From positions 90,310-154,309 of the forward strand of contig CAWHHK010000015.1 of NCBI GenBank assembly GCA_963829065.1: DNA of 64,000 bases. The letters are read 5' to 3'. Positions 32,937 to 56,959 of the stretch are shown piece after piece; within the stretch, counting starts at the first letter, position 1, and the number at the start of each line of letters is the position of its first letter. The DNA is from an uncultured Gammaproteobacteria bacterium (GTDB lineage Bacteria; Pseudomonadota; Gammaproteobacteria; Pseudomonadales; Azotimanducaceae). The notes beneath the pieces are model-generated. The model was not told the origin of the DNA. It worked only from the letters and a program-made list of their open reading frames with translations, and did no database searches. Made by a program: the position numbers and the translations under genes.

Positions 32937-33857
32937 TCAATTCGACGAACGCGGCGGAAAGCCGCCAGCGCGACTCACCATCGCGGGGAGTTCCTTGCCG
33001 AGCGCTTCGCCGAGCCAGTGCGACGTCTCGATCACCGAATCGAGTTCGCCGTCGTGTTCGATGCGCATCCGATCGAGCATGTAGATCAGGTCTTCGGTCG
33101 CGATATTGCCGGTGGCTTTCGGCGCGAACGGACAACCGCCGATACCGCCGATGCTCGAGTCGAGCGTCTCGACGCCGACCTGCAGCGCCGCGAACGCGTT
33201 CGCGATGCCGGTGTTGCGCGTGTTGTGAAAGTGCGCGCGCAGCGGCATCGATCCCAACTGCGCTCGCAACGCACCGAACAACTCGAGCACCTGCCCCGGC
33301 ACACCGACGCCGATCGTATCGGCGAGCGCGAGTTCGACGGGACCGGCGTCGGCCAGGCGCTTCGCGATGTCGAGCACGCGGGCGACGTCGACGTCGCCTT
33401 CGAACGGACAACCGAACGCGACCGCAATGGTCGCGGTCGCGCGCAGTCCGCGGCGCGCGGCGTCGCGCAGGATCTCGCAGCCGACGGCCACGCTCTCGTC
33501 GACGCTCTGACCCTGGTTGCGCGCGCCGAACGTGTCGCTCGCCGGGCACGACCATGCCGACTTCCTGCAAGCGTTGCGGTCGCGCGCGCCCGATCATAGC
33601 CGCGGCGATTCAGGATCAAGCCCGCGTACGTGACGTCGCCGCGCTGCGGCAGTCCCGCGCACACCGCTTCCGCGTCGGCCATCTGCGGCACGCGCGTCGG
33701 ATGCACGAAACTGGTGACTTCGATGCGGCGGAAGCCGGCCGCGAGCGCGCGATGAATCAGCGTCAGCTTGTCTTCCGTCGACAACATGACGGACTCGTTC
33801 TGCAGGCCGTCGCGCGGGCTGACTTCCATCACGGTGACGGACCGCGCCGAGCGCCAT
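32937..33857 (-). pseudogene. Hydroxymethylglutaryl-CoA lyase family (HMGL-like), frame disruptions near 33850 and 33500-33590
   Basis: ..[15 protein letters not shown].. in the frame of ORF 33086..34366. ..HFHNTRNTGIANAFAALQVGV..DSSIGGIGGCPFAP.. in ORF 32937..33491. The candidate ATG at 33857 is 4 nt after the glnS stop. Confidence 0.85.
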
Positions 33858-33861
33858 CGTC

Positions 33862-35551
33862 TCAGCCTCCAAAACCGTCGCGTAGCGCGACCGTGCGATT
33901 GAACACGCACCGATCGGCGTCGATGCGAATCGTCTTTGCAGAAATAGCCCTGCCGCTCGAATTGGAACCGCGGCGCGTCCGACTCGACGATCGCGCGCTC
34001 GACGAATCCCCGGCACACCGTCAGCGAACCGGGATTCAACGCCGTCGCGAAGTCGAGCTTTGCCGGATTCGGATCGACGAACAGCTGTTCGTACAAGCGG
34101 AACTCGGCCGGTACCGCGTTGCGCTGCGACACCCAGTGAATGACGCCCTTCGGCTTCAAGCCGCTGGTATCGGCGCCGCTCTTCGACTCCGGCACGTAGC
34201 TGCAGCGCAATTCGACGACCGCGCCGGCGGCATCCTCGACGACCTCGTCGCAGCGGATGATGAAGCCGTTGCGCAGCCGCACCATCCCGCCGGGGACCAA
34301 CCGTTTGTATTTCGGCGGCGGCACTTTCGCAAAGTCGTCGCGCTCGATGTAGAGCGTCGCGCCCAAACGTCAACTGCCGCACGCCCATGTCGGCCCGTTG
34401 GGGATGCCACGGCGCCGACAGCATCTCGTCTGCGTCGTCGGGATAGTTCGTGATCGTCACTTGCAGCGGGTCGATCACCGCCATGCCGCGCGGCGCGGTC
34501 GCCTCGAGATCGTGCCGAATGCAGAACTCGAGCAGACTCAGCTCGATGACGTTGTCCTGCTTCGTGACGCCGATACGGCCGCAGAAGTCGCGGATCGCCG
34601 CCGGCGTCACGCCGCGCCGGCGCAGGCCCGCGATCGTCGGCATGCGCGGATCGTCCCACCCGGCCACGTGCCCCTCGGTGACGAGCTGGTGCAGCAGGCG
34701 CTTGCTCATCACCGTGTATTCGAGCCCGAGCCGCGAGAATTCGATCTGCGGCGGATGAAAGTTGACGTTGATGTTGTCGAGCACCCAGTCGTACAGCGGC
34801 CGGTGATCTTCGAATTCGAGCGTGCACAACGAGTGCGTGATGCCTTCGAGCGCGTCGCAGATGCAATGCGTGTAGTCGTACGTCGGATAGATGCACCACG
34901 CGTCGCCGGTGCGCTGATGGCTGGTGTGGCGGATGCGGTACAGCACCGGGTCGCGCATGTTCACGTTCGGCGACGCCATGTCGATGCGCGCGCGCAGCAC
35001 GTGCGCGCCGTCGGGAAATTCGCCGGCGCGCATCCGCCGGAACAGATCGAGGTTCTCCGCAACGCTGCGATTGCGATACGGACTGTCGCGGCCGGGTTCG
35101 GTCAACGTGCCGCGCGTCGCGCGGATCTCTTCGGCACTGAGGCTGCAGACGAACGCCTTGCCGTCGCTGCACGAGTTGCACCGCGAAGTCGTAACAGCTG
35201 TTCGAAATAGTCGCTCGCATACGTCAGCCGGTCGCCCCAGTCGAATCCGAGCCAATGCACGTCGTGCTGGATCGACTCGACGTATTCCTCGTCTTCCTTC
35301 AGCGGATTCGTGTCGTCGAAGCGCAGATAGCAGACGCCGCCGAACTCCGCCGCGACGCCGAAGTTCAGACAGATGCTTTTCGCGTGGCCGATGTGCAGAT
35401 AGCCGTTCGGCTCCGGCGGGAAGCGCGTGATCACGCGACCCGTGACGATTCCGGCGTCGATATCGTGACGGATGCGAGAGCGAATGAAGTCGCTGTGCTC
35501 GCTGGACTTTTCGCTGGACTCTTTGCCGGATTTGGACGGATCGGCCGACAT
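33862..35551 (-). pseudogene. glnS: Glutaminyl-tRNA synthetase, at least 4 frame disruptions
   Basis: HIGH motif [16 protein letters not shown] in ORF 35102..35551. ..TVMSKRLL.. (KMSKS-type) is in the frame of ORF 33594..35852. ..[29 protein letters not shown].. is in ORF 33086..34366. The last ~20 codons are in a further frame, ending ..[14 protein letters not shown]-stop. Confidence 0.9.
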
Positions 35552-35710
35552 AACGGGCGTGGCTCATCGGTGAAACGCGCAGCATTGTAGCGGATTGCTC
35601 GCGCGCATTTGTCCCGCATCGCTCGGTCGACGCGGTCCATCGCGCACATCGCGGCGACTTTCGTCGCCGCATCATGGGTCGTTCAGCGAATCGTCTTCGA
35701 CGGAGCTGCC

Positions 35711-36338
35711 ATGGCGTTGGTGCTCGAATTGCACGAACGGCTCGACACGCTGACGCGCTATTGCAAGACCCTGCGCTCGCTCGGCGTCGAATCGCATGCA
35801 CTGTCCGTCGCGTGCGGTGCGGCGAACACCTGCGGTCTCGACGGGTATGCACTCGTTGTGCTCGTAGCGCACAGCGAAGCGCCGACGCCGGCGCTGCGGA
35901 GCCTTCTGGAACGCTGCGAATCGATGCCGGTACTCGCGCTCGTCAACGCAGTTCAGCATCGCGCGTCAGTTCGAGTGGTTCGACTGCGGCGTGCATGCGC
36001 TGATCGGTACGCCGGTCGCGTACGGGACACTCGCGCGACAGATTCGAGCCTTGCTGAGCTTGTCGCGGCCGCCGACTCCAACGCTGTGTCCGCGACCGAA
36101 CCTCACGCGGATCGAACGGCGCGTCCTCGAACTCCTCGCGTCACAACCGGGACAGCCGTTTTCGCGCGGCGCGATCCTCGGGCATATCTATGACGATCAT
36201 CGCGTCGTCTGCGAGCGAACCGTCGATGCGCACATCAAGAACCTGCGGCGAAAGTTGACCGCGGCGCCGGGCGGCGCCGTGGTCCGCGCTGTTTACGGAG
36301 AGGGTTACGTGTTCGAGTCGGAGACTCGAGTTATTTGA
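35711..36338 (+). pseudogene. OmpR-family winged-helix regulator with an atypical receiver domain (conserved acidic residues absent), one frame disruption near 35960
   Basis: The C-terminal DNA-binding domain ..LTRIERRVLELLASQPGQPFSRGAILGHIY....RTVDAHIKNLRRKL....VRAVYGEGYVF is in ORF 35991..36338. The N-terminal receiver-like part reads LVLELHERL where EDD is expected. It reads [10 protein letters not shown] where the phospho-accepting Asp is expected. Confidence 0.7.
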
Positions 36339-36741
36339 AGCGCTTGTAGGTCAGGTAGCAGAAGTAAGTCAGAAATCCGCAGCTCACCATACTGATGAGC
36401 AGAATTGATGCCTGGTCGAGATACATCGGTGACTTCGCAATCATGACGTACAGCGTGCCGACACCTGCCGCGGCGATGACCGCGCCGAGACTCGCGTAGA
36501 CGACCTTCGGCACGGCAAGCCGACCACGCGTATCCCAGTAGCCCGTCAGTGCGCCCGCCCAGCGAAACAGCAGTACCGTCAGGCCCAAGCAGATGGAATC
36601 GAACACCAGTAACTGCCCGTTGAACCTGTGCACGAGCATCCAGACACCCCATACGCTGACGGCGGCCATGCCCACGGCAATGACACCGCACACGTGGCCA
36701 ACCACGCTCGCAATGGCGGGCGGAACCTCGTCGTCGGTCAT
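36331..36741 (-). CDS. Four-TM membrane protein; candidate microcin immunity protein
   Basis: Intact 136-aa ORF. Its ATG overlaps the precursor stop (ATGA at 36738-36741). Four hydrophobic helices, and AT-richer than its surroundings. The function is inferred from position only. Confidence 0.6.
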   Translation of the reverse strand: MTDDEVPPAIASVVGHVCGVIAVGMAAVSVWGVWMLVHRFNGQLLVFDSICLGLTVLLFRWAGALTGYWDTRGRLAVPKVVYASLGAVIAAAGVGTLYVMIAKSPMYLDQASILLISMVSCGFLTYFCYLTYKRFK

Positions 36742-36989
36742 TGCAACGCCACTGTTCCGTGGCCGGATTGGTAGAGTCGGTTGCCGACCGTATCGCCGAG
36801 GGCAAGGGTCAACCCGCTATTCACCCCAGTGCCAAGGGCATACCCGAACCCGAACGCGACGGCGGACGCGCCCATGATGTTCCGCAACGCCAGTCCCGCT
36901 TCGATTCCGGTAATCGTGACCGGGCCGATCTTCAGCTCATCCAGTCCGCCGCTGACCTGAGCGATCTCTTCCTGAGATAGTGTCCGCAT
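36738..36989 (-). CDS. Class II (colicin V-type) microcin/bacteriocin precursor with a double-glycine leader
   Basis: 83-aa ORF with GAGGA 7 nt upstream of the ATG. The leader MRTLSQEEIAQVSGG parallels the CvaC leader MRTLTLNELDSVSGG. The 68-aa core is Gly/Ala-rich and Cys-free. It sits next to a C39-peptidase ABC exporter and an MFP. Confidence 0.8.
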   Translation of the reverse strand: MRTLSQEEIAQVSGGLDELKIGPVTITGIEAGLALRNIMGASAVAFGFGYALGTGVNSGLTLALGDTVGNRLYQSGHGTVALQ

Positions 36990-37116
36990 ATCGTAGTCCT
37001 CATGACTGTTGATGATTCGTAATCATTCGGGTCCTGAAACCCGATGTCGAAGCTACTCGATCGGGTTGTGCTTTGACATCATCCCACCAGCGAATTCATT
37101 GCCTTTTCACACTCTG

Positions 37117-38058
37117 TTACTCGCGTGATATCAAACTGACATCACCGTGATGGCGCGGTGATCTCATCACCAACTCGTGGATCCACAACCAGTGCGCCCA
37201 CTGGGCGGGGTATCGCCGGATCTGTTGCTCCGCCAACGACCACAGCCGCTGCGTGATCGCGACGACCCGCGCCCTGCGCGCGTCGACCGACTCCCACCGC
37301 GTCGATCTCGCCGACACCACCGGCATCGCCTCGACGCACGACGCACCCGAGGCGTCGTAGTGCGTAAAGATCGGCATGATGTCGGCGCCGCCCAGCACCG
37401 CGAGTTCGGCCGGTCCACAGACGACGTTCGCGCACTCGTCGAACAACTCGACGGGAACGGCACGTCCAAACCGCGGTGGTAAGTCGTAGAGCACGACGAC
37501 GATCGCGCCGCGTCTGAGTTCTCGCACCGCGACGGCCGCGGCACGATCTTCAGTGCGCAATACCGTCAACGCGAGACCCGCCGCGATGCGCGCAAATGCG
37601 CGCTCCTCGCGATCGCTCCATTGATTGCGGCGCACGACGAACACGGGCTTACCGGCCGCGCGCGACAACGCGCAGCTGCCGCAGCCCCTCGAGATAGTCA
37701 CCCAGGTGAATCGTCGCGACGACGATTCCGCGCGGACACGCCGCCAGGTACGCGCCGACATCCTCCGCGTCCGCGAACGAGCCACGTCCGCCGTTGGCGC
37801 CGACGTGCGTCCAACTGCGACTCTCCAAGTGCCTATAGAAAAACCAGTCATAGAGCAGCCGTCTTGCAGAGGCAGCCGTCTCTCCCAACAGTTCTTCGAA
37901 GGCGTAGCGTAGCGACCCGTATTCGCCGGCAGCAGCATTCGCGCGAGCCCTCGCGCCAGCAGCAGCCGACCGCGCAGCGCCGGATCGAGCGGCGCGACAC
38001 AGTTGAGCGCGGCGACGGCGGAGAAGTACTTGGCGGTCGAACGTTCCTCGCGTGACAT
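37117..38058 (-). pseudogene. LpxL/HtrB-type lipid A biosynthesis acyltransferase family (LPLAT superfamily) protein, two frame disruptions
   Basis: ATG at 38058 with GAGG 7 nt upstream. Fragments: ..GIVVATIHLGDYLEG.. (ORF 37649..37888), ..LRRGAIVVVLYDLPP...VELFDECANVVCGPAELAVLGGADIMPIF.., and the C-terminal ..YPAQWAHWLW.. (ORF 37117..38622). This pattern is recalled from PF03279-type acyltransferases. Confidence 0.65.
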
Positions 38059-38073
38059 GGAGTTACCTCGACG

Positions 38074-39345
38074 ATGAAGCCAACGGATGGCAAAGGCTCG
38101 CAAGTGACGTTGTTTCGCGACGCCGCGGTTGCATTTCATTCCGCTGCCCGTTTGGGCTCGCCGCGGATGACGCACAACCTGTCGACCACCGCCATGACGT
38201 TGTTGCTGACGGCCATCGTCGTCGCCTTCGGCGGCTTCATCGCGTGCGGTCATTACGCGCGCAAGGAAACCGTCGACGGTTTTCTCGAGCCTGACCGCGG
38301 CGTGATCCGCGTGTTTCCGCAACGCGGTGGCGTCATCAGCGACGTTCGCGTCGCGCCCGGCCAAAGTGTTGCGCGCGACGACGTCCTGTTCGAGGTCGCG
38401 GATCTGCAATCGCTGGCGGATGGGTCGGACGCGGACCGTGAGTTGTTGATCCGCTACGACAACGATCGTGGCGCGCTCGTCGCGATGCGCGAACGCGAAA
38501 TGAGCCGCTTCGACGTCGAACGCATGGCCCTCGACGCGCAGCGGGTCACCCTCGAGCAACAGGTCGTCGCACTCGAACAACTCGGCGTGGTCCAGTCCGA
38601 ACAAGTCGCGCTCGCTGACCAACAGCTCGACGCGCTGCGCACGCTGCGCGACCGCGGCGCATTGCCGACGCTCGAATGGCTGGCGCGGCTCGGCGCCTAT
38701 CTACAGGTGCGCGAGAAGCTCGCGACCACGCAGCAGATGCGCAAGCGCCTCGACGGCGAACTCGCATCGGTCACCGCGCGGCTGCGCGAGGCGCCACTCG
38801 AACACGCACAACGTCTCGCCGACGTCGATTCGCGCGCGTCCGCCGTGGCGCAGTCCGAAGTCGCGGTGCGGGCGCGGCGCAACTTCGACGTGCGTGCACC
38901 GGTCAACGGACGCGTCGTTACGGTGCTGCGCAGGGTCGGGGACCGAGCATCACCGCTCGACGTCGCGCTTACGATCATTCCGGCTGATTCGACGCTGATC
39001 GGCCGGCTGCTGATCCCGACGAGTGCAATCGGATTCATCACGCCGGGCCAGGAGGTGCGAATTCGCTTCGACGCATTTCCGTATCAACACTTCGGCGTGT
39101 TTCCCGGTGTGATCCGCGAAGTCGCGCGCGGCGTCTTGTTCAGCGGCGACGGACTGGGCCCGCTGCGCGTCACACGGCCCGCATATCCGGCGACCATTGC
39201 GTTGGGCGGTCAATCGATGGTTGCCGACGAGCGTGACGTTCCGCTGCAATCCGGCATGCTGTTCAGCGCGGACATCGTGCTCGAACAACGCACCATTCTC
39301 GAATGGCTGATCGAGCCGCTGCTCGCGCTGCGGGGACGCGCGTGA
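38074..39345 (+). CDS. HlyD-family membrane fusion protein, CvaA-like (bacteriocin/microcin export)
   Basis: Intact 423-aa ORF. Has an N-terminal TM anchor (LSTTAMTLLLTAIVVAFGGFIA), a lipoyl-like segment, a long coiled coil and a C-terminal beta-barrel region. Its stop overlaps the ABC gene start (GTGA). Confidence 0.85.
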   Translation: MKPTDGKGSQVTLFRDAAVAFHSAARLGSPRMTHNLSTTAMTLLLTAIVVAFGGFIACGHYARKETVDGFLEPDRGVIRVFPQRGGVISDVRVAPGQSVARDDVLFEVADLQSLADGSDADRELLIRYDNDRGALVAMREREMSRFDVERMALDAQRVTLEQQVVALEQLGVVQSEQVALADQQLDALRTLRDRGALPTLEWLARLGAYLQVREKLATTQQMRKRLDGELASVTARLREAPLEHAQRLADVDSRASAVAQSEVAVRARRNFDVRAPVNGRVVTVLRRVGDRASPLDVALTIIPADSTLIGRLLIPTSAIGFITPGQEVRIRFDAFPYQHFGVFPGVIREVARGVLFSGDGLGPLRVTRPAYPATIALGGQSMVADERDVPLQSGMLFSADIVLEQRTILEWLIEPLLALRGRA

Positions 39346-41611
39346 CGACGCAGTTGTCATCCACGCTCTTCCGGCGGCGCCTGCCGGTGCTGTTGCAGAC
39401 CGAGGCCTCCGAGTGCGGCCTCGTGTGCCTCGCGATGGTCGCGCGGTATCACGGCGGCCACAGTGACGTGCGTTCGCTGCGCGCAACACACGGCGCGTCG
39501 GTGCGCGGGTGGTCACTGCAACGGCTGATAGCGGTAAGCGAAGCGACCGGATTGAGCGCGCGGCCGCTGCGCGTCGACCTCGACGAACTCAAGCACCTCG
39601 CGTGCCCTGCGATCCTGCATTGGGATTTCGATCACTTCGTCGTGCTGAAACGCATCGGCGCGCGGTATGCAACGGTCCACAATCCAGCCGTCGGCGAGCG
39701 CCGCTATCCGCTGCACGAGTTTTCGCGCCATTTCACCGGCGTCGCGCTGGAACTGACACCAACGCCCGCGTTCGAACGCTCGGCGCGCGCGGCGGGTCTG
39801 AGCCTGATGACGTTCTGGCGCGGCATCGGCGCTCGCCCCATTGTGCAGTTGCTGGTGCTGTCGACGCTGATCCAGTTGTTCGCACTCGCGACGCCGTCGT
39901 ACATGCAACTCGTCGTCGACGACGTGCTCGTGAAACAGGACGTCGACGTGCTCGCCATTCTCGCGCTCGGCTTTCTGATGCTCGCGCTGATCAACGTCGC
40001 GACCAAAACGCGTGCGCGCCTTCGCGAGCCTGCATCTGGCGAACCAACTGAGCTATTCGATCGGCGTCAGACTCTTCTCGCATCTGATCCGCCTGCCGCT
40101 CGACTACTTCCAGCGGCGCCACATCGGCGACATCGTGTCGCGGTTCGGCTCGCTGAAGCCGATTCAGGAGTTCATCGGCGGAGGCGTCGTCGCAGCCGTC
40201 ATCGACGGCGGCATGGCGGCGACGACCCTGGTGGTGCTGTTCGTGTACTCGCCGCTGCTCGCCGGCATCGCGCTGGCGGCATTCGCCGTGTACGCAGCGC
40301 TGCGCTTACTGCTATTTCAACCGCTGCGACGGCGCAGCCACGAAGGCATCGTCGCCGCCGCGCGGCTCGATTCGCACTTTCTCGAAACGATTCGCGCGCT
40401 GCAGGGAATCAAGCTATTCGGCAGGGAAGCCGAGCGCGAACGGGCGTGGCAGGATCTGTTCGTTGCGACAGTCAATGCGGGCACGCGCGTCGCGCGGCTG
40501 AACCTCGGCTATGAGGCGGCGAACGGCACACTGCTCGGTATCGAAAACGTGCTGCTGGTTTTCGTCGGCGCGCACGAGGTGCTGTCGGGCGCGCTGACGA
40601 TCGGCATGTTGTACGCCTTCATCGCATATCGAACGCATTTCGCAAGCGCAATGAATTCGTTGATCACTCAGATCGTGCAATTCCTGATGCTGCGGCTGCA
40701 TCTCGAGCGGATCGCCGACATCGCGTTGACGGAACCGGAGCACCGTGCAACGGCCGCGTCGACGTTCGTTGCGCCGGTGCGCGGCGCGCTGACGCTCGAG
40801 CGCCTGTGTTTTGCGTATCCAGGCGACGCCGGCGCGCTGCTCGAGAACCTCGACTTGTGCATCGAGCCGGGCCAGCACGTCGCGATCGTCGGTCCGTCCG
40901 GCGTCGGCAAATCGACGCTGCTGCGGCTGCTGCTCGGGCTTGCTCGCACCGACCTCCGGTCGCGTCGCGATCGACGGCGTGCCGATCGAGCGGCTCGGCC
41001 TGAAGTCGTATCGCGCGGGGATCGCCGCGGTGCTGCAGGACGACGTGCTGCTGTCGGGATCGATCGCCGACAACGTCAGCTTCTTCGATCTGGCACCGAA
41101 CGCGCAGACGATCGAACGCGCGACGCGCCTCGCGCAGATCTACGACGACATCAAAGGCTTGCCGATGGGCTTCGACAGCCGCATCGGCGACATGGGTTCG
41201 GCGTTGTCGGCGGGTCAACAGCAGCGTCTGCTGCTGGCGCGCGCGTTGTACCGGGTGCTGCATCCCGCCAACGAACCGGCGCTGCTGTTTCTCGACGAAG
41301 GCACCAGCCACCTCGATCTCGCGAGCGAGCTTGCGATCATGACGTCGATTGCAGCGCTCGGCGTGACGTGCGTGTACACGACGCACCGCGACAGCGTCGC
41401 CGCGCTCGCCGATGTCGTGCTGGTGCTCGGTAACGCGGATTGGGAGGTGAGACCGCGGTCGACGCGAGCGCATTTCAGCGCCCGGCTAGCGCTTCGTCAC
41501 CTGCCGCATCAGCCCTTCCTGCGACGCCGACGCCACCAGCCGGCCGTTCACATCGAAGAACTCCGCGTGATTCATGCCGCGCGCGCCGCGACGCGCTGCT
41601 GGTGCGTTTGA
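39342..41611 (+). pseudogene. Peptidase C39 domain-containing ABC transporter (PCAT, CvaB-like), frame disruptions near 40010 and 40930; 3' end uncertain
   Basis: C39 domain with catalytic Cys (LLQTEASECGLVCLAMVARYHG) and His (HFVVLKRI) in ORF 39303..40514. TMD and Walker A GPSGVGKSTLL are in ORF 40012..41433. LSAGQQQR, the Walker B LLFLDEGTSHLD and the H-loop are in ORF 40811..41611. The last ~120 nt overlap tesB, so the true stop may be near 41448. Confidence 0.85.
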
Positions 41612-42357
41612 CGACGAGCAGCCAGTCGTCGATCGCAGAAATCGCGATGAAACCACAGTGCGTGATCGAGGCTCGCCATCTGGATTTCGTCGCGCGTCAC
41701 GGCGCTCGCGTGCGGCAGCACCGCGGTCGACACCATGCCCATATCCGACGCATACGCGAGCAGACAGAACCGCAGTGCCGCGTCGGCGCCGGCGAGCGGC
41801 GCGCGAAAACGGATCCAGACCGGATTCCAGAACCGCTCTCCCGGCGCGCGCGGCCGATCCAGCGGAAATACCGAGCGCGTTTCGAACGGCCGCAGGCGCT
41901 GCGCCCACGGATGGATGCGCGGATTCGTGTGCGCTTCGCGCCGCGCGCGCGTCACGTCGTCTTCGAGCGACTCCGGCCGCGGCACGTTCGGCATCGCGAT
42001 TTCGTGGCACAGCCCGGGCTCGTCGATCTGGAACGACACGTCCATGTTGAAGATCGCATCGCCGTTCTGTACCGCGACGACACGGCGCGTCGTGAAGCTC
42101 GTGCCGTCGCGGATACGTTCGACCTCGTACAACACCGGCCGAGTCGGTTCGCCGGCGTGCATGAAGTAGCCGTGCAGCGAGTGCGGCAGCCGCGCATCGA
42201 CGGTGTTGGCCGCCGCGCGCAGCGCCTGCGCGAGCACCTGGCCGCCGAACAGGCGTCCGTCGCGATGTTCGTTGGCGCCGCGAAACATGTTCAGCTCGAT
42301 CGTCTCGAGTTCCAGTATCTGCAGCAGATGCAGCGCTGCTGCCGGGGTCCGCGGCAT
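41486..42357 (-). pseudogene. tesB: Acyl-CoA thioesterase II (double hot-dog), one frame disruption near 41620
   Basis: ORF 41572..42357 contains LHLLQILELETIELNMFRG.....GRLFGGQVLAQAL..SLHGYFMHAGE...LLAYASDM. The C-terminal ~40 aa (..NGRLVASASQEGLMRQ) are in ORF 41486..42394. Confidence 0.85.
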
Positions 42358-43607: not shown

Positions 43608-45441
43608 ATGGCACACGGTAAACACGACAATCTCTGGGCGGTTACGACGGGGCAACGCGCGCGTTACTCCGGCGCCATCGTCACGATGGCGGTCGCGAAC
43701 GTCTGCATGTTCGGCGCACCGCTGATCGCGAAGTACGCGATCGACGTCGTCGTTGCGAAAGACGTGACGCTCGGTACGCCGATGCTGGTCGCGCCCGCGC
43801 AGTGGCTCGAACACACGTTCGCGTCGCAGAACGCGTTCGCGTGGTATCTGCTGTTGTCCGCATTGCTCGCCGTGGCGGTGACCGGCGCTCGGCGGCATCT
43901 TCCAATACGTGCGGGGCCGCTGGTCGGCAATCGCATCGGAAGCGATCGTGCGCCGGCTGCGCGAAATGCTGTATCGCCATCTGCACGATCTGCGCGCGGG
44001 TTACTACGACGACGCCGACACCGGCGACCTGGTACAGCGCTGCAGTTCCGACGTCGAAACGCTGCGCGTGTTCCTGTCGAGCGACGTCGTCGAGATCGGC
44101 CGTTCGATCCTGCTCGTGCTGACGGTGACGCCGATCTTGTTCTGGCTCGACACGCGGCTCGCGTGGGTGTCGTTGTGCCTGATCCCGTTCATCGGGCTCT
44201 TTGCGTACATCTTCTTCCACAAGGTGCAGCAGGTATTCCAGGTCACCGACGAAGCGGAAGCCGCGATGACGGGCGTGTTGCAGGAGAACTTGACCGGCAT
44301 TCGCGTCGTGCGCGCGTTCGCGCGGCAAGAGTACGAAATCGCGAAGTTCGCCGAGAAGAACCGCATCCACCGCGACCTCAACAATCGGCTGATCACGCTG
44401 ATGGGCCGCTACTGGGGCACCGCCGATTTCTTCTCGCTGATGCAGATCGGACTCGTATTGCTGGCCGGTGCTTTCGCGATCATCGACCACCGCATTTCGG
44501 TCGGCACGCTGTTCGCGTTTCTGACCTACGAAGGCATGGTGATCTGGCCGGTGCGGCAGCTCGGTCGCGTGTTGACCGATTCGGGCAAAGCCGTCGTATC
44601 GCTCGGCCGCACGAACGAAATCCTGAGCCAGGCCGAAGAGACGCTGGAACCCACGCCAAGCAAGGGCCGCGCCGAGGGCGATGTGCGCATCGACCACCTG
44701 ACGTTCGGTTACGACGCTGCGCGTCCGGTCATCAAGGATTTTTCGCTGCACGTGCGCCCCGGCGAAACAGTGGCGTTCGTCGGCGCGCCGGGCTCCGGCA
44801 AATCGACGCTGATCCGCCTGCTGTTGCGGCTGTATCCGTATCAGCAAGGCTCGATCAAGTTGGACGGTCAGGAAGTCAGCGACGTCAACCGGCATTGGTT
44901 GCGCCATCAGATCGGTGTGGTGCTGCAGGATCCGTTTCTGTATTCGCGCAGCATCGCGGCGAACCTGAGGGTCGGCCGACCGGATGCGCCCGATGCCCAC
45001 CTCGAACAGGCCTGCGTCGACGCCGCGATCCACGAATCGGTCATGGAGTTGCCCGAACAGTATGAGGCGCTGGTGGGCGAGCGCGGCGTCACGTTGTCCG
45101 GCGGCCAGCGGCAGCGGCTCGCGCTCGCGCGCGCGTTGCTGAAGGATCCTCCGGTACTGGTGCTCGACGACTCGTTGTCGGCCGTCGACACCGGCACGGA
45201 AGGTTTGATTCTGAACGCGCTGCGCGCGCGGCGCGGCCGCCACACGACGCTGATCATCGCGCACCGGTTGTCGTCGGTAGTCGATGCCGACCGCATCGTC
45301 GTGCTCGAAGCGGGCCGCGCGGTGCAGATCGGCAGCCATGAGGAACTGTCGACGGTCGAGGGACCGTATCGGCATCTGTGTCAGATCCAGGGATCGCTCG
45401 ATGCGGAGATCCGCGTCGACGTGTCGAGAGCGGGAAGTTAG
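43608..45441 (+). pseudogene. ABC exporter, fused permease/ATPase (MsbA/ABCB type, first of a pair), one frame disruption near 43890
   Basis: N-terminal TM region in ORF 43608..45065. The remainder is in ORF 43909..45441 with Walker A GAPGSGKSTLI, LSGGQRQR and Walker B VLVLDDSLSAVD. Confidence 0.9.
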
Positions 45442-45444
45442 ATC

Positions 45445-47325
45445 ATGTACGACGACGATAACTACGACGACGGCTTCGACGAGGAAGCGCTCGCACGGCG
45501 GATGCGGCTGCATCTATGGCGCAAGCTGTTCGGCTACACGAAGCCGTATCGGCGCGAGCTGGTCATGCTCGGGTCTTTCGCGACGCTGACCGCGCTGATG
45601 GACGTGACGTTTCCGCTGATCACGCGCGGCGTGATCGACGCGGTCGATGCGCACGGTGCGGCCGTGAATCTCTGGCCCTATGCCGCCGCGTACATCGCGT
45701 GCACGACGGTGCTGGCGCTGTCGGTCGGCTGTTTCATCTGGGCCGGCGGCAAGATCCGCACGCACATCAGTCACGACATCCGCCGCGACGGCTTCGAGAA
45801 TCTGCAGCGGTTGTCGTTCTCGTTCTACGACCATCGTCCGGTCGGCTGGCTGATGGCGCGGATGACGTCCGACAGCGAGCGGCTGGCGAACATTCTCGCG
45901 TGGGCGTTCCTCGACATCATCTGGGGCGTCACGCTGATGCTCGGCATCGCCGTCGCGATGCTCGTGATGAACGTGAAGCTCGCGCTGCTCGCGCTCGCGG
46001 TCATTCCTTTCCTCGGCTGGGTCAGCGCGCGTTTCCAGAAACGCATGCTGCGCAGCGCGCGCGAAGTGCGCCGCACCAACTCGCGCATCACTGGCACGTA
46101 CAACGAAAGCATCATGGGCGTGCTGACCAGCAAAGCGTTCGTGCGCGAAAGCGAGAACCTGAACGACTTCAAGAAGCTCACCGGCAAGATGTACGACGCG
46201 TCGGTCGAGAACATGATCCAGGCCGCGCTGTACGTGCCGATCATCGTCACGCTGGCGAGTCTCTCCGTTGGGTTGACGCTTGCGGTCGGCGGTTTCGACC
46301 TCCTGCACGGCGTCATCAGCGTCGGCACGTTGGTCGCTTTCATGGCGTACGCGCGCAATTTCTTCGACCCGATCGAGCAACTCGGGCGGTGGTTCGCCGA
46401 GATGCAGATGGCGCAAGCCTCGGCCGAGCGGATCATCAGCCTGATCGACGCAGTGCCCGCAATCCGCGATTCGGACGACGTGATTGCAGCGACGGCGATG
46501 CAACGCAACCTGCCGGCGCGCCAATCGATCGGCGCCGACGGTGGACCGGCGCGCATCGAACGCATCGAGCTGAAAGACGTCTGCTTCGATTACGGCAATG
46601 GCCGCCGCGTGCTCGACCACGTCAACCTGACCGCGTCGCGCGGCGAGACGATCGCCATCGTCGGCGCCACCGGCGGCGGCAAAAGCACGCTCGTCAACGT
46701 CGTCTGCCGTTTCTACGAACCGACGCGCGGCGCGGTGCTGATCGACGGCATCGATTATCGCAAGCGCTCACTGCACTGGCTGCAATCGAACCTCGGCATC
46801 GTGTTGCAGAACGCACACGTGTTCAGCGGCTCGATTCTGGAGAACATCCGCTATGGCCGCCTCGATGCGACCGACGCGCAAGTGCACGACGCCGCGCGTC
46901 TGGCCGGCGCGCACGAGTTCATCACCGAACTCGCGCAAGGCTACCTGACTGATGTCGGCGAAGGTGGCGGACGGCTGTCCGCCGGACAGCGCCAGCTGGT
47001 GTCGTTCGCGCGCGCGATTCTCGCCGACCCGCAGATCCTCGTGATGGACGAGGCGACGTCATCGGTCGACACCGACACCGAGCAGCGCATTCAGCGCGGC
47101 ATGGCGAACGTGCTCGCGGGACGCATCAGTTTTGTGATCGCGCATCGGCTGTCGACGATCCGCAATGCGACGCGCATCGTCGTGATCGAGCACGGCCGCA
47201 TCGTCGAACATGGCTCGCATGCTGCGCTGGTCGCGCTACGCGGTCGCTACTTCGATTTGTACCGACAGCAGAGTCTCAGCGAATCGACGCGCGCGATCAC
47301 CGAGTTGCGGCCGCGGCTGGTGTAG
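45445..47325 (+). CDS. ABC exporter, fused permease/ATPase (second of the pair)
   Basis: Intact 626-aa ORF starting 4 nt after the partner stop. Has six-TM-type N-terminal half, Walker A GATGGGKSTLV, LSAGQRQL and Walker B ILVMDEATSSVD. Confidence 0.92.
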   Translation: MYDDDNYDDGFDEEALARRMRLHLWRKLFGYTKPYRRELVMLGSFATLTALMDVTFPLITRGVIDAVDAHGAAVNLWPYAAAYIACTTVLALSVGCFIWAGGKIRTHISHDIRRDGFENLQRLSFSFYDHRPVGWLMARMTSDSERLANILAWAFLDIIWGVTLMLGIAVAMLVMNVKLALLALAVIPFLGWVSARFQKRMLRSAREVRRTNSRITGTYNESIMGVLTSKAFVRESENLNDFKKLTGKMYDASVENMIQAALYVPIIVTLASLSVGLTLAVGGFDLLHGVISVGTLVAFMAYARNFFDPIEQLGRWFAEMQMAQASAERIISLIDAVPAIRDSDDVIAATAMQRNLPARQSIGADGGPARIERIELKDVCFDYGNGRRVLDHVNLTASRGETIAIVGATGGGKSTLVNVVCRFYEPTRGAVLIDGIDYRKRSLHWLQSNLGIVLQNAHVFSGSILENIRYGRLDATDAQVHDAARLAGAHEFITELAQGYLTDVGEGGGRLSAGQRQLVSFARAILADPQILVMDEATSSVDTDTEQRIQRGMANVLAGRISFVIAHRLSTIRNATRIVVIEHGRIVEHGSHAALVALRGRYFDLYRQQSLSESTRAITELRPRLV

Positions 47326-52237: not shown

Positions 52238-52261
52238 GCGTCAGCATCAGGTAGGTGAATC

Positions 52262-53526
52262 ATGAGCGAAACCCACGTCCAGTCAGACTCCGACTTTCCG
52301 GATCCGTACACGATTGCGCTCGCCGACATCGACGTCGCGCAACCCGAGCTGTTCCAACGCAACCTCCACTGGCGCTACTTCGAGCGACTGCGCGCGGAAG
52401 ACCCGGTGCATTACTGCGCGCACAGTCTGTTCGGGCCGTATTGGTCGGTGACGAAATTCAAAGACATCATGGAGGTCGACACGCATCACCAGGTGTACTC
52501 CTCCGAAGGCGGCATCACGCTCGGGCCGCCGATGGCGATGCAGGAATCGCAGATGATGCGCATGCCGATGTTCATCGCGATGGATCCGCCCAAACACGAT
52601 GTTCAGCGCGCGACCGTGAGTCCGGTCGTCGCACCGCGCAATCTCGCGACGCTCGAAAGTACGATCCGCGAACGCGCCGCCAAAATTCTCGACGCGCTGC
52701 CTCGCAATCAGACGTTCAACTGGGTCGAACGCGTCTCGATCGAACTCACGACGCAGATGCTCGCGACGTTGTTCGATTTTCCGTTCGAGGATCGCTACAA
52801 GCTGACGCGTTGGTCGGATGTCGCGACGGCGGCGCCCGGCGGCGGCGTCGTCGAGACGCGCGAACAACGCCGCGAAGAACTGATGGAGTGCCTCGCGTTA
52901 CTTCACGCGGCTTGTGGAACGAGCGCGTCAACGCACCGCCCGGTCACGACCTGATCTCAATGCTGGCGCACGGCGAGTCGACGCGGAACATGGCGCCGAT
53001 GGAGTATCTCGGCAACCTGATCCTGTTGATCGTCGGCGGCAACGACACGACCCGCAACTCGATCAGCGGCGGCGTGCTCGCGCTCAATCAGAATCCCGCC
53101 GAGTATCAGAAGCTGCGCGACGATCACACGCTGATCACGAACATGGTGTCGGAGATCATCCGTTGGCAGACACCGCTCGCGTATATGCGGCGCACGGCGC
53201 TCGTCGACACGGAACTCGGCGGCAAACGCATCAAGGCCGGCGACAAAGTGCTGATGTGGTACATCTCCGGCAACCGCGATGACACCGCGATCGACGCACC
53301 CGACGAGTTCCGGATCGACCGGCCGAAAGCGCGGCAACACCTCGCGTTCGGCTTCGGCATTCACCGCTGCATGGGCAATCGACTCGCCGAGATGCAGCTG
53401 CGCGTCGTGTGGGAAGAGATCATGAAGCGCTTCCGCCTCATCGAAGTCGTTGGCGAACCCCAGCGCACGTTCTCAGCGTTCGTCCACGGCTACACCGAAC
53501 TGCCGGTGAAGGTGCACGCGGCCTGA
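52262..53526 (+). pseudogene. Cytochrome P450, CYP153-like (terminal alkane/aliphatic hydroxylase type), one frame disruption near 52900
   Basis: N-terminal part is ORF 52262..52954. The C-terminal part, in ORF 52255..53526, has the I-helix NLILLIVGGNDTTRNS and the heme-binding loop FGFGIHRCMGNRLAE. Confidence 0.85.
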
Positions 53527-53568: not shown

Positions 53569-54788
53569 TCAGCGCTCACCGAAAGATTCATTGAGCGTCT
53601 TGCGCAGCGGTTTGAGCAGGACGTCCATCAAGGACCGCTGTCCCGTTCGGATATTCACCTGCGCGGTCATACCGGGGACGATCTCGAGCGTTCGGCCGGT
53701 GGTCGTTCGAGCCGGCGCATTGTCCGGCTTCACGTGCACGCGGTAGTACACCTGCGTCCCTTGCTCGGATTGCTCCTTCAACGTGTCGGCACTGACGTAG
53801 ACGACTTTCCCGGGCGTAGTGCCGTAGATCGTGTAGTCGAACGGATCGAAGCGGATGTTGGATACCAGACCCGGCGCGACGCGAGCGATGTCGGCGGGGC
53901 TGACGCGGCATTCGATCAACAGCTCGTCCTCGACCGGGACGATCTGCATGAGCTCTTCGCCGGGGCCGAGTACGCCGCCCACCGTGGTGACCCGGATGTT
54001 CTTGACGATTCCCGGAACCAGCGCAATGAAGACGCTGTTCGCTTGCTCCTCGAGCCGGCGGATCAACAACTGTTCGTTCTGGGCGATCTCGTCCTCGGCT
54101 TTCGTCAGCTCCAGTACGGGCGTCCTCGAGAAAACGGTTGCGCCGGTTGACCAATGCGGCCTGCGCTTCGTTGAGGCCGCGTTCGGCCCGCAGCAGCTCG
54201 GAGCCGCTGGCATCGCCGTCCTTGTAGAGGCTCTGCACCAATGCCAGCTCCCGCGTCGCGAGATCCACCGCGACACGCAGCGTGCTCAGCTCTTCGGACA
54301 GGCCGGTACGGCGCTGCTCGAAGAGCGCTCTCTCGACTTGCGTGATCTCCGGCGCCTGTTTCTCGAGATCCGTCGGGAAACGCCAGTTGCTCGCGGCCGA
54401 CGACTTCTGCGCGCAGGCGCGCGACTTTGGCCTTCAGCGCGAACAGGCGCGCATTGATTTCGCCCACCGTCGCGGCAAAGCGGGTCTGATCCAGCCGCGC
54501 GAGGACTTGGCCTCGCTGCACGCGATCGCCTTCGTGCACCAGCAGTTCGTTCAGCACGCCGCCATCCACGGACTGAATGACCTGCACGCGAATGCCGGTG
54601 ATGACCTCGCCTTTGGCGCGAGCGACTTCGTCGATCTGGAACACGCTGGCCCACACGATGAACGCAGCGACGGCAACCGCGAGCACGAGCAGCACCGTGC
54701 CGTAGCGGCCGCGATGCGCCTGCTGCAGTCGTTCGATCCGCCGTCGCGTGAAGGGGCTGTCCTCGTTCGCAACGCCGTCAAACCACAT
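53569..54788 (-). pseudogene. Type I secretion membrane fusion protein (HlyD family), several frame disruptions
   Basis: N-terminus with TM anchor in ORF 54105..54788 (..GTVLLVLAVAVAAFIVWASVFQIDEVARAKGEV..). The coiled-coil piece is in ORF 53588..54268. The C-terminal ..GMTAQVNIRTGQRSLMDVLLKPL.. is in ORF 53569..54276. Confidence 0.85.
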
Positions 54789-56959
54789 CGGCTTTCCCTC
54801 TTTGGCGAGGATGCGCGGCGGGCAGTCGTGAAGCCTGTCCGACCATCTGCGGCAACAGCGCCTCCGGCCTGCCGTCCCGGACCACGCGCCCCTGCTGCAT
54901 GATCAATACGCGATTGACCAGCCTGCTCGCCATCAGCGGCCGATGGGTGCTGACCACCAGAATGTCGCTCGGACGCAGAGAGGTCTGCGAGCGTCTGCCA
55001 CACGCGCTCCTCGACTTCTCTGTCGAGCGACGCCGTGGGCTCGTCCAGAAGCCATATGCGGGGCTGGTTGATGAACACGCGCGCCAGCGCAACGAGCTGG
55101 CGCTGGCCGCCCGAACAGACCTTCGCCGCCTTCGCTGATCGGCAGGTCCATGCCCTGCGGGTTTGCGGCGGCGATCGCGTCGATCCCCAGTTGCCGGCTG
55201 ATCTCGAGCAGGCGGTCGTCGCCGGCCGTGCCGCTGAGGCAGAGATTGCTGCGCAGCGTTCCTCGGAACAGGTGCACCGATTGCGGCAGGTAGCCGATCT
55301 GAGTGCTGACCAGCAGCGGATCGGTTTCCCACAGATCCGCGTGTCCCAGTCGCACGCGTCCCTCGCTGGGCCGATACAGGCCCGCCAGGACTTTCAGCAG
55401 CGTCGATTTGCCCGAGCCCACCGGACCCACGAGCAGGACTCGATCGCCCGGACTCGAGGCGCAACTGGTCGACGATGAGTTGGTCGGATCGGCGAGCCCG
55501 CGTACGCGAAGCGGACACCTTCCAGTGCGATCGCCGTGGGGTCCTCGTCGGGAAGCAGCAACTGTTGGTCGGGCGACGTTCGGATGCGAGCCCGAGGACC
55601 TGGTGCACCATCTTCAGCGCCTGGCTGACGTGCTGCCACTTCTCGAGGTACTGCACGCTCTGCGCGACCGGCGCAATGATCCGGCCGCCGAGAATGCTGC
55701 AGGCGATCAGGCCGCCCATGGTCAGCAGGCCCGCCTCGATCTGCCAGACACCGACCACCACCGCAGCGAACGTACGCGATGGTCGAGAGACTGCTGGTGG
55801 TGACCGTGGAAGGAACTGCTGATGGCCCGCTGCTGTATCGCGTAGCGATCGATGCTCGCGGTGATCTCCTGCCACTCCCCGGCGAAGCGCCAGCCGGCGT
55901 TGTTGGCGCGGATCGATTCGGCGCCGCGGATGCTGTCGACCAGCAGTCCCTGGCGCTCGTTGCTGCGCGAAAGCTGGTTGCGCAACAATCCGCGCAACCG
56001 CCACTGGGTGACGAAGCCCAACAACAGCGCCACCGGCAGCAGCAGCGCGTAGACCCACGCGACAGCGCCGCCGATGACGCCGATGAAGGCGAGAAACATC
56101 AGCGCGAACGGCAGATCCACGAGGGCAAACACGACGGTGGCGGAAAAGAACTGGCGCACGGCTTCGAGGCTGCCGACCTGCGCAGCCAGTGTCCCCAAGG
56201 ATGCGTGGTTGCGCGTCCAGTTGAACGTGCAGCAGGTGCTCGAAGACCTGCTGCGAGACCCGCTGATCGACGGCGCACGGAAAGGCTGTCGAGGATTCGC
56301 GCGCGAATCGTTTTGAAGCGTCCAGTCGAGCACCACCACGATCGCCATGCCGGCGACGAGAGTCGGTCAGCGTGGCGTAGGCCATCGTCGGCACGACGCG
56401 ATCGTAGACCTGCATCGCGAATAGTGAAGTGGCAACGCCGATCAGGTTGACCAGGCAGGTCGCCACGACGATCTTCCACAGCCACCCGCGATCCCGAAAC
56501 AGTTCCTTCCAGACCAGTCGGGTCGCCAGGTTCCCCGACAGCGTCGGCGGTATGCGTCCTGCGAGCGCGACGACTGCTGCTTGATCCAAAGCACCTGCGG
56601 CGCCGTCGAGTTCGCGCGATCGTCAATCGTGGACTGTTCGCCGTCTGCCGCGGTCAGAAGCGACACTGTCGGTCTGCGCATCGCTCGCGAAGTACCACGC
56701 GTCGCGGTGGCGGATCAGCACCGGCAGGCGGCGCGGGTCGAAGCGCTGCCAGGGCAGCAGGACGAGCAGCCACGTCTTTCACGTTGCGCGGCGATCAGCA
56801 CCTGGCGCAGCCATTGGGTAGGTCGAGCTGCCTGCGCCGAGTCCGACGCGCTCTTCCGCCTCGCGCAGTCGCGTCGCTGTCGCAGGCGATATCGAGCGCA
56901 TTCAGCAGTCGCTGTACCAACGCCAGATCGGGGGCGGTCGCCCAAGTTCCGTTGCTCAT
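54778..56959 (-). pseudogene. Type I secretion system ABC permease/ATPase (HlyB/LapB-like), many frame disruptions
   Basis: ATG at 56959 (MSNGTWATAPDLALVQRL..) overlaps the TolC stop by 1 nt. TMD fragments (..LWKIVVATCLVNLIGVATSLFAMQVYDRVVP..). Walker A GPVGSGKSTLLK in ORF 54933..55430. Walker B WLLDEPTASLD in ORF 54551..55078. Confidence 0.85.

Follow-up and report, generated by a model that had tools for sequence, protein, structure and literature searches.

A probable class II microcin-like bacteriocin module with a constant acyltransferase gene in an uncultured soil gammaproteobacterium

Results

Gene content of the locus

The window, by which we mean the whole 64 kb stretch of contig CAWHHK010000015.1 that was analyzed (GC 64.7%; coordinates are given in window numbering), carries a small-peptide locus between glnS and tesB, where we identified a regulator-like gene, a short membrane open reading frame (ORF), a double-glycine precursor gene, a PF03279 acyltransferase gene, a membrane-fusion adaptor gene, and a gene for a peptidase-containing ABC transporter (PCAT) (Table 1). 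The double-glycine precursor, the small membrane ORF that overlaps it, the adaptor, and the PCAT make up the gene set of a class II microcin-type system, and together with the acyltransferase they form a five-gene module. An earlier note on this DNA, made from the letters alone, had proposed a class II microcin-type system in a non-enterobacterial host. The ORFs it listed are all present, the gene set bears out the type of system, and the relatives of the locus all come from metagenome-assembled genomes (MAGs) labelled uncultured Gammaproteobacteria or Pseudomonadales. Class II microcins are peptides of less than 10 kDa from Gram-negative producers, with a leader of 15 to 20 aa ending in GG, GA, or GS, encoded near a membrane-fusion protein and a PCAT with catalytic Cys and His; the precursor has this size and leader, the PCAT and adaptor are adjacent (the PCAT of the window after two single-base repairs), and a Gram-negative producer is indicated by the MAG labels of the related loci and by TolC-like OEP proteins in the window. 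We consider it probable that an uncultured soil gammaproteobacterium carries here, on its chromosome and by vertical inheritance, a bacteriocin module of the class II microcin-like type. The case is built on gene content, motifs, family conservation, synteny, and frame breaks that fit a window-wide pattern of indels, and it is from these that we infer that the peptide is cleaved, exported, and antibacterial, that immunity is provided, and whatever part the acyltransferase may play.

Table 1. Features of the peptide locus and of the TolC-like gene, in window coordinates.
Feature	Position	Strand	Basis
OmpR-family winged-helix protein, regulator-like	35711..36338	+	Pfam Trans_reg_C 2.9e-18
136-aa membrane protein, putative immunity	36331..36741	-	ORF, hydropathy, synteny
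Precursor gene, 83 aa, double-glycine leader	36738..36989	-	ORF and homologue family
Leader MRTLSQEEIAQVSGG, 15 aa	36945..36989	-	ORF translation
Predicted 68-aa core, then stop	36741..36944	-	ORF translation
AT-rich intergenic region, 127 bp, 47% GC	36990..37116	-	Composition and consensus match
PatA/LpxL/LpxM-type acyltransferase (LPLAT, PF03279), ~313 aa	37117..38058	-	Pfam, tblastn, AlphaFold2/Foldseek
HlyD/CvaA-type membrane-fusion adaptor, 423 aa, intact	38074..39345	+	Pfam, NCBIfam
PCAT (C39 peptidase, ABC permease, ATPase), ~710 aa	39303..41470	+	Pfam domains, tblastn
TolC-like outer-membrane factor, frame-broken	56959..58251	-	OEP matches 1.5e-13, 1.7e-8

The precursor peptide and its family

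When a regular expression for double-glycine leaders is run over the six frames of the 64 kb, the precursor ORF is the sole match, and its placement beside the PCAT is therefore not a chance match. A GAGGA Shine-Dalgarno sequence lies 8 nt ahead of its ATG, and the predicted core (6.8 kDa, isoelectric point 5.5) is Cys-free and rich in Gly (19%), Ala, and Leu, with YQSGHGTVALQ as its C-terminus. There are 54 close homologues of ~77-87 aa, mostly metagenomic and, where the source gives a name, called 'hypothetical protein', and their consensus reads MRTLSxAEIDQVSGG for the leader and xDSIxIGGxSITGIEAGLALRNVMGAxGVAF..GYG.GT..N..YTAVSG.SLGTD.YQ.S for the core. The leader is near-invariant over 30 aligned homologues, as is the N-terminal part of the core; the hydroxyl residues T27, Y50, and Y73 of the core are also near-invariant, and no conserved Lys is found in the core across the aligned homologues. 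The ratio of nonsynonymous to synonymous change (pN/pS) is 0.15 in the leader, the most constrained part, versus 0.42-0.48 in the core, and since synonymous sites are near saturation in this comparison, the values show only that the precursor is a real, constrained ORF. In the AlphaFold2 model, the leader forms a helix at residues 6-12, followed by a hairpin (18-27), a long helix (28-64), and a short C-terminal helix, with a predicted local distance difference test score (pLDDT) of 88-95 for residues 31-60. A long helix in a Cys-free core rich in Gly, Ala, and Leu is typical of membrane-active class II microcins.

In a hidden Markov model search of 1.84 billion representative proteins, the precursor family comprises 30 clusters at E ≤ 1e-3, which include distant double-glycine peptides of 62-97 aa with the common pattern TG[IV]xxGL...GGA...GY.xGT...G.S.G.D.Y; one of these, from the cultured Alteromonas gilva, is named 'bacteriocin' at its source. 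The precursor and its close homologues reach the threshold of no Pfam or NCBIfam family, and the close homologues are unnamed or 'hypothetical protein', in agreement with the earlier view of an undescribed peptide. A tblastn search with the precursor against 72,556 plasmids gave no match. The description of the locus as colicin V-type holds for a leader of 15-17 aa only, since an hhalign comparison with CvaC covers 17 residues of the leader and none of the core; core homology to colicin V was considered and rejected on this ground. The window peptide has no match to PF17508, the microcin V family, at E up to 5, and 13 of 30 members of the precursor family do match it, with a best E of 0.006 that is still below threshold. 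We place the peptide in an unannotated family within the known class II microcin-like kind; it belongs neither to the MccV sequence family nor to class IIb.

The AT-rich region between the precursor and the acyltransferase contains a sigma-70-like site, TCGACA-17-AATGAT at 37050..37022, which is a consensus match only; one such site is found versus 0.7 expected in shuffled sequences, and the match would not count as evidence of function.

The membrane ORF

The precursor stop overlaps the start of the membrane ORF as ATGA, an arrangement of translational coupling, and hydropathy gives four transmembrane segments in the 136-aa product, both as the earlier note had described. We recovered 48 homologues, with no reliable Pfam family; the only traces are one sub-threshold YndJ match of the window copy and a precomputed PF07694 label on two homologues. 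The ORF follows the precursor in all related loci and also in the more distant L027 and L021, and proteins of 141-150 aa that resemble it lie beside distant precursors in L030/L031, L027, and L021. It is the fastest-evolving gene of the module, at 30-65% identity relative to L005, an intact related locus that we use as reference. Near-invariant positions are nonetheless found in the family, namely H16-V-C18 in helix 1, the loop RWAGxLTGYWDTRGRL, and C128 in helix 4, and conservation of this degree may point to binding or catalysis. A small membrane ORF in this position is by convention read as an immunity gene, and we regard the four-helix protein as putative producer immunity.

The exporter genes and the frame breaks

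The CvaA-like adaptor gene is intact, as had been noted, with matches to Pfam HlyD_3 (3.5e-14) and TIGR01843 (7.5e-38), and over residues 1-422 its product and the L005 orthologue share 80% identity. The PCAT is spread over three overlapping plus-strand frames from 39303 to 41611, with Peptidase_C39 at 1.9e-32, ABC_membrane at 5.3e-27, and ABC_tran split over two frames, so that all three families for which the earlier note had advised a search, Peptidase_C39, ABC_membrane, and HlyD, are matched. The tblastn alignment with the intact PCAT of L005 falls into three collinear pieces, at 84-85% identity. When two extra bases are removed, the repaired protein keeps SECG (Cys36) and HFVV (His111), the catalytic Cys and His pointed out earlier, as well as Walker A, LSAGQ, Walker B, and the H-loop. 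The start is likely the GTG at 39342, judging from the sequence, where it overlaps the adaptor stop, and from a 4-nt overlap in L005. The end at 41611 is probably read-through, with the true end near 41470; the orthologue alignment ends near 41467, and there is a further small indel near 41455. Orthologues in L002, L005, L013, L015, and L031 are intact, at ~699-710 aa.

The frame breaks could mean that the locus is a decaying remnant, in which the PCAT (two breaks), the acyltransferase (two), and the regulator-like gene (one) have truly become pseudogenes and export of the peptide has ceased. To map the breaks, proteins from the intact loci L005 and L002 were compared with the window by tblastn, and breaks of the same type were found in glnS (three), tesB (two), and the HMGL-like gene (one), which brings the density to ~1 per kb within ~9.5 kb and includes an essential aminoacyl-tRNA synthetase gene. 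Both PCAT breaks are a single extra G, at 40011 and 40937, the second of which lengthens a G run, and no nonsense mutations or deletions accompany them. Among the related contigs, which come from long-read 'MFD' metagenome bins, L001 and L004 are equally fragmented and L002 is intact. Since the essential glnS and other neighbors are broken in the same way, orthologous loci are intact, and the repaired PCAT keeps every motif, the breaks are most likely assembly errors and not decay; the remnant explanation is very improbable, and with it the dead PCAT for which the earlier note had allowed. A pseudogenized exporter was discarded on the same grounds, namely the breaks in glnS, tesB, and the HMGL-like gene and the single extra G's of the PCAT. 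The assembly has the look of a long-read MAG that was not polished, which makes any pseudogene call in this window unsafe, and the practical lesson for error-prone long-read MAGs is that frame breaks should be judged against neighboring essential genes before a pseudogene is called. Single-base indels at roughly this density are seen over 33086..42339 and 53600..58251 of the window, and the TolC-like gene is among those broken.

The acyltransferase

The earlier note had the exporter genes divergent from the precursor with about 1 kb between them; the distance is right, and the gap is not empty, as it holds the acyltransferase gene, the most unusual component of the locus and one that had been missed. 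Its reading frame has two compensating shifts, near 37913 and 37670, as seen by tblastn of intact orthologues. The protein scores 34 bits against Pfam Lip_A_acyltrans (2e-8), above the gathering cut-off of 22.3, and the AlphaFold2 model of an orthologue (P0055; pLDDT 86, predicted template modeling score 0.85) is matched by Foldseek to PatA at E 1.7e-12 and to LpxM at E 2e-9, with no other convincing match, so that score and PatA/LpxM fold both place it in PF03279. The best match in a profile search of the Protein Data Bank is again PatA, at 9e-8. Inspection of the sequence finds no long N-terminal hydrophobic anchor, and for this reason the enzyme looks PatA-like rather than like a housekeeping LpxL.

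The acyltransferase lies between adaptor and precursor in every related locus that covers this position. Its family has 57 close homologues, after which identity drops to 29%, and this size mirrors the families of the precursor (54) and the membrane ORF (48); in addition, ~17 'longest contig' values are common to the match lists of acyltransferase and precursor. The close homologues appear to be confined to these loci. The nearest acyltransferase outside the family (P0112, 29% identity) was considered as a clue from context and set aside, as its neighborhood is ordinary housekeeping and uninformative. On balance, and by a modest margin only, we favor the view that the enzyme belongs functionally to the peptide system.

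A variant of the microcin-like interpretation, and not a denial of it, is that the acyltransferase O-acylates the peptide on a conserved Ser, Thr, or Tyr at the cytoplasmic face of the membrane before export by the PCAT, much as HlyC activates HlyA ahead of its export by HlyB/HlyD. This variant would suit the constancy of the gene in the module and the apparent confinement of its close homologues, the PatA-like lack of an anchor, and the near-invariant T27, Y50, and Y73 of the core as possible acceptors. It would also suit the active site, where, in addition to the confident PatA/LpxM fold, the His of ATIHLGDYLEG is invariant in 33 aligned homologues and aligns with the HX4D His of a canonical LpxL-like protein; against this, the Asp of HX4D is replaced by Leu at +5, with a near-invariant Asp at +3 and a Glu at +6. 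The relay residue of PatA is a distant Glu. The layout would also suit this variant, as the ATG of the enzyme (38058) and that of the adaptor (38074) lie on opposite strands 15 bp apart, with the Shine-Dalgarno sequences of both in the common spacer, and this spacing means that each promoter must lie within the opposite gene. Other evidence speaks against acylation: the core has no conserved Lys, distant relatives of the precursor have no acyltransferase beside them, and the association amounts to adjacency within a single clade. A literature search found no case of a PF03279-type acyltransferase in a bacteriocin or RiPP cluster (RiPPs being peptides made by the ribosome and then modified) and none of such an enzyme acylating a peptide, and we know of no PF03279 enzyme that does so. 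We therefore hold acylation of the peptide to be doubtful, if worth keeping in view.

The spacer itself, GGAGTTACCTC (within 38056..38076), is near-palindromic, and the corresponding spacing in L005 is similar, at 16 bp.

Genomic context and evolution of the module

Related loci were recovered through the precursor search, by which genomes of the clade that have no module would go unseen. Their common order is ABC-ABC, tesB, PCAT and adaptor in one direction, acyltransferase, precursor, and membrane ORF in the other, and then glnS and the HMGL-like gene (ABC-ABC … tesB … PCAT <- adaptor <- / -> acyltransferase -> precursor -> membrane ORF … glnS -> HMGL-like). The tesB–glnS site is conserved in every related locus long enough to show the flanks, and the five-gene module is constant, with gene content that varies on either side of it, in the tesB-PCAT slot and in the one that separates the membrane ORF from glnS. 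L030 had seemed to offer an independent context for the acyltransferase, precursor, and membrane ORF, and was rejected because the longer L031, of the same sub-lineage, shows the tesB–glnS site. A metagenome scan with glutaminyl-tRNA synthetase (GlnRS) for clade members without the module returned only GlnRS of ≤69% identity, none with the module.

Relative to L005, identity is 78-88% for GlnRS, 61-85% for the PCAT, 52-80% for the adaptor, 53-75% for the acyltransferase, 51-71% for the precursor, and 30-65% for the membrane ORF, and the module evolves faster than its housekeeping neighbors; a fast-evolving peptide with a fast-evolving partner would fit an antagonistic toxin-immunity pair. The earlier note had found the precursor and immunity genes visibly AT-richer than the flanks and consistent with acquired DNA. 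The compositional claim is weak, as GC is 61.5% for the precursor and 59.6% for the membrane ORF versus 64.7% for the window, and GC at third codon positions (GC3) is 0.73 and 0.77, close to the 0.78 of the adaptor, with only the intergenic region clearly AT-rich. Acquisition is contradicted by these GC3 values together with the conserved tesB–glnS synteny across related loci, and recent horizontal transfer was set aside for that reason. From the same two lines of evidence, we take the module to be ancestral to the clade and not recently acquired.

Several side observations concern these loci. The slot between tesB and the PCAT is empty in the window, and its genes differ between genomes (L031:5202-6620, L005:4106-5128, L004:4513-5463), being of the types transglutaminase-core protein overlapping the PCAT stop, alpha/beta hydrolase, and amidohydrolase. 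A second, unrelated 68-aa double-glycine ORF (MRRLSVVEIEQVSGGVSVISDIGSVALGPGVRG...) lies between acyltransferase and precursor at L005:9636-9842, L006:843-1049, L007:233-439, and L011:2619-2819; it could encode a second exported peptide or an inducer, and the window has no such ORF. The MAG SMAG_U14640 has two different pairs of precursor and membrane ORF at the ends of two contigs (L008, L014), which reflect either heterogeneity among strains or a tandem duplication that was split during assembly. The distant precursor relative P0170 of L021/L022/L023 lies at the edge of a nonribosomal peptide synthetase (NRPS) cluster, in the order NRPS, HlyD, PCAT, stand-alone adenylation and peptidyl carrier protein (A-PCP) module with TubC docking domain, and precursor, and it is followed by a transposase and a 144-aa ORF that resembles the membrane ORF of the window. 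L021 had been considered as a link to a fatty-acyl ligase; by Pfam the protein is the NRPS A-PCP module with TubC docking domain, which lends no support to lipidation.

Other genes of the window

The regulator-like gene converges on the membrane ORF and has its frame break near 35960. It has no Pfam match to Response_reg, although inspection of the L005 sequence suggests a degenerate receiver domain in its N-terminal half. The gene is present in a sub-lineage only, with unrelated genes or nothing in the slot in other genomes, and it is a possible regulator of the module.

The TolC gene to which the earlier note drew attention is present, as its OEP domain confirms. It heads a type I secretion operon of its own, OEP-ABC-HlyD, on the minus strand (~53.6-58.25 kb, all genes frame-broken), with ABC_membrane and HlyD_3 genes directly downstream on the same strand, and a part for it in the peptide system is not indicated. 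It is possible as the outer-membrane partner of the PCAT, as a candidate only. A cytochrome P450 gene lies just upstream of this operon (52255..53526, plus strand). Two adjacent half-transporter genes with ABC_membrane and ABC_tran domains (43608..47200, plus strand) are of the heterodimeric exporter type; the pair lies beside the locus in all related genomes, and its proteins are 25-28% identical to the PCAT and have no C39 domain. A scan of the window with Rfam found no RNA families.

Discussion

Proposed mechanism and its main alternative

In the mechanism that we propose, the 83-aa precursor and the four-helix membrane protein, whose ORFs overlap, would be translated jointly. The C39 domain of the PCAT, on the cytoplasmic side, would recognize the 15-aa double-glycine leader and cut after Gly15, and the 68-aa core would pass out in a single step by way of the PCAT, the HlyD-type adaptor, and a TolC-like channel whose gene lies elsewhere. 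The core, for which a short hairpin and a 37-residue helix rich in small residues are predicted, would most likely target the inner membrane of related bacteria, and the four-helix membrane protein would most likely shield the producer. For the acyltransferase, the constant fifth gene that is transcribed divergently from the exporter genes, the two leading options would be that it acylates the peptide ahead of export and that it helps to protect the producer through a lipid.

A number of observations sit less easily with this microcin-like interpretation. The locus has no dedicated outer-membrane gene. The peptide resembles characterized microcins in its leader only. The matches of the precursor family to MccV and Bacteriocin_IIc, like that to TIGR03949, are weak and sub-threshold, and they reflect the leader. 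The N-terminal half of the core, ITGIEAGLALRNxMGA, is unusually conserved for the toxin of a toxin-immunity pair, and the HVCG and RWAGxLTGYWDTRGRL motifs of the membrane ORF are unusually conserved for an immunity partner. In Alteromonas gilva, L025, and L027, which carry distant relatives of the precursor, these occur as an orphan precursor with a small membrane ORF and have no acyltransferase, and the adjacency of the acyltransferase, being seen within one synteny-conserving clade, is not independent evidence of a functional link. Finally, the module occupies a single chromosomal site in every genome recovered, with which a lineage-core and non-antagonistic function would be compatible.

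The last point leads to the alternative that the module is not a weapon, and that the peptide has a lineage-core role under purifying selection, for example in signaling, as a component of the envelope or membrane, or as a partner of the four-helix protein. PCATs also export peptides that are not bactericidal, and the conserved motifs of the N-terminal core and of the membrane ORF (His16, Cys18, and Cys128) would have a ready explanation, as would the second double-glycine peptide and the regulator-like gene of the sub-lineage, which recall pheromone-controlled systems. The constancy of the site is, however, tempered by the way in which the loci were found, as clade genomes without the module would be missed by a search based on the precursor. 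The peptide and the membrane ORF, moreover, evolve much faster than the housekeeping neighbors, bacteriocin and immunity genes canonically have this layout of a precursor and then a small membrane ORF, which recurs as orphan pairs in distant relatives, and one MAG appears to hold two divergent copies of the precursor. We judge this alternative to be quite unlikely and retain the microcin-like bacteriocin module as our interpretation.

An active peptide would bring in an unannotated family of Gram-negative double-glycine bacteriocins from uncultured soil gammaproteobacteria, in agreement with the wide spread of class II microcins that is now recognized. If the acyltransferase modifies the peptide or mediates immunity, it would represent a new step of microcin maturation or self-protection and a new class of substrate for PatA/LpxL-type enzymes; were acylation of the peptide itself to be true, the peptide would be the first class II microcin of an acylated ('lipo-') kind, as well as the first peptide among the substrates of the lipid A/phosphatidylinositol mannoside (PIM) acyltransferase family.

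Comparison with known systems

The acyltransferase is most similar in structure to PatA, the mycobacterial PIM acyltransferase, and to LpxM/LpxL, with which it shares the invariant active-site His; it differs from them in sequence (14-23% identity), in the Leu that its family has for the HX4D Asp, and in that close homologues of the window type appear only beside this peptide family. The arrangement of an acyltransferase gene just upstream of the gene of an exported toxin, with an ABC exporter and HlyD alongside and TolC elsewhere, is also that of hlyCABD, though the likeness is an analogy of logic only. HlyC has an unrelated fold and acylates Lys of a large repeats-in-toxin (RTX) protein with a C-terminal secretion signal, whereas the substrate in the window would be a 68-aa peptide with a cleaved N-terminal leader and no conserved Lys.

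The class IIb siderophore-microcins MccE492, MccH47, and MccM resemble the window system in their Cys-free, Gly-rich core and in export by PCAT and adaptor. An accessory enzyme of their loci, acyltransferase-like and active in maturation (MceI/MchD with MceJ), esterifies the peptide. The class is defined by a Ser/Gly-rich C-terminal tail together with siderophore-attachment genes of the MceC/D/I/J type, and the window locus has neither: its peptide ends without such a tail, there is no glycosyltransferase or esterase among the genes identified between glnS and tesB, and its enzyme has the PatA/LpxM fold of PF03279, whereas MceI belongs to the HlyC family.

Colicin V, or microcin V, of E. coli (cvaA, cvaB, cvaC, cvi) is another comparator in layout. 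Its 15-residue double-glycine leader is identical to that of the window at 9/15 positions, a C39 PCAT and an HlyD-type adaptor are encoded beside the peptide gene, the peptide is coupled with a small membrane ORF, the gene for the outer-membrane channel lies outside the locus, and the core is Gly/Ala-rich. The two peptides nevertheless have no detectable homology in the core, and the core of the window has no Cys, whereas the CvaC sequence used for comparison has two. The immunity candidate of the window is a 136-aa protein with four helices, compared with ~78 aa for cvi, and the window locus has the extra acyltransferase gene. Colicin V is plasmid-borne, in contrast to the module of the window, which would be a vertically inherited part of the chromosome in a clade of soil gammaproteobacteria.

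A parallel outside the Enterobacteriaceae is the characterized McbABCI system of Moraxella catarrhalis, for which activity and immunity are experimentally proven and whose locus encodes an adaptor, a PCAT, a 77-aa double-glycine peptide with a core unlike other bacteriocins, and an overlapping immunity ORF (PMC2761928). Compared by gene layout, it shares with the window the same four-part gene logic in a non-enterobacterial gammaproteobacterium (PMC2761928), and it serves as a functional precedent. It differs in that the four mcb genes form one co-directional operon, whereas the exporter genes of the window diverge from the peptide genes, in that McbI has 74 aa, and in that the mcb locus has no acyltransferase. 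The statement of the earlier note that characterized class II microcins come almost entirely from Enterobacteriaceae is dated by this system and by Parker et al. 2025, who describe class II microcins as dispersed and abundant across Gram-negative bacteria (PMC12219008); they have also been reported in Xanthomonas (PMC13174018), and given so wide a spread, a non-enterobacterial example such as that of the window is no longer surprising.

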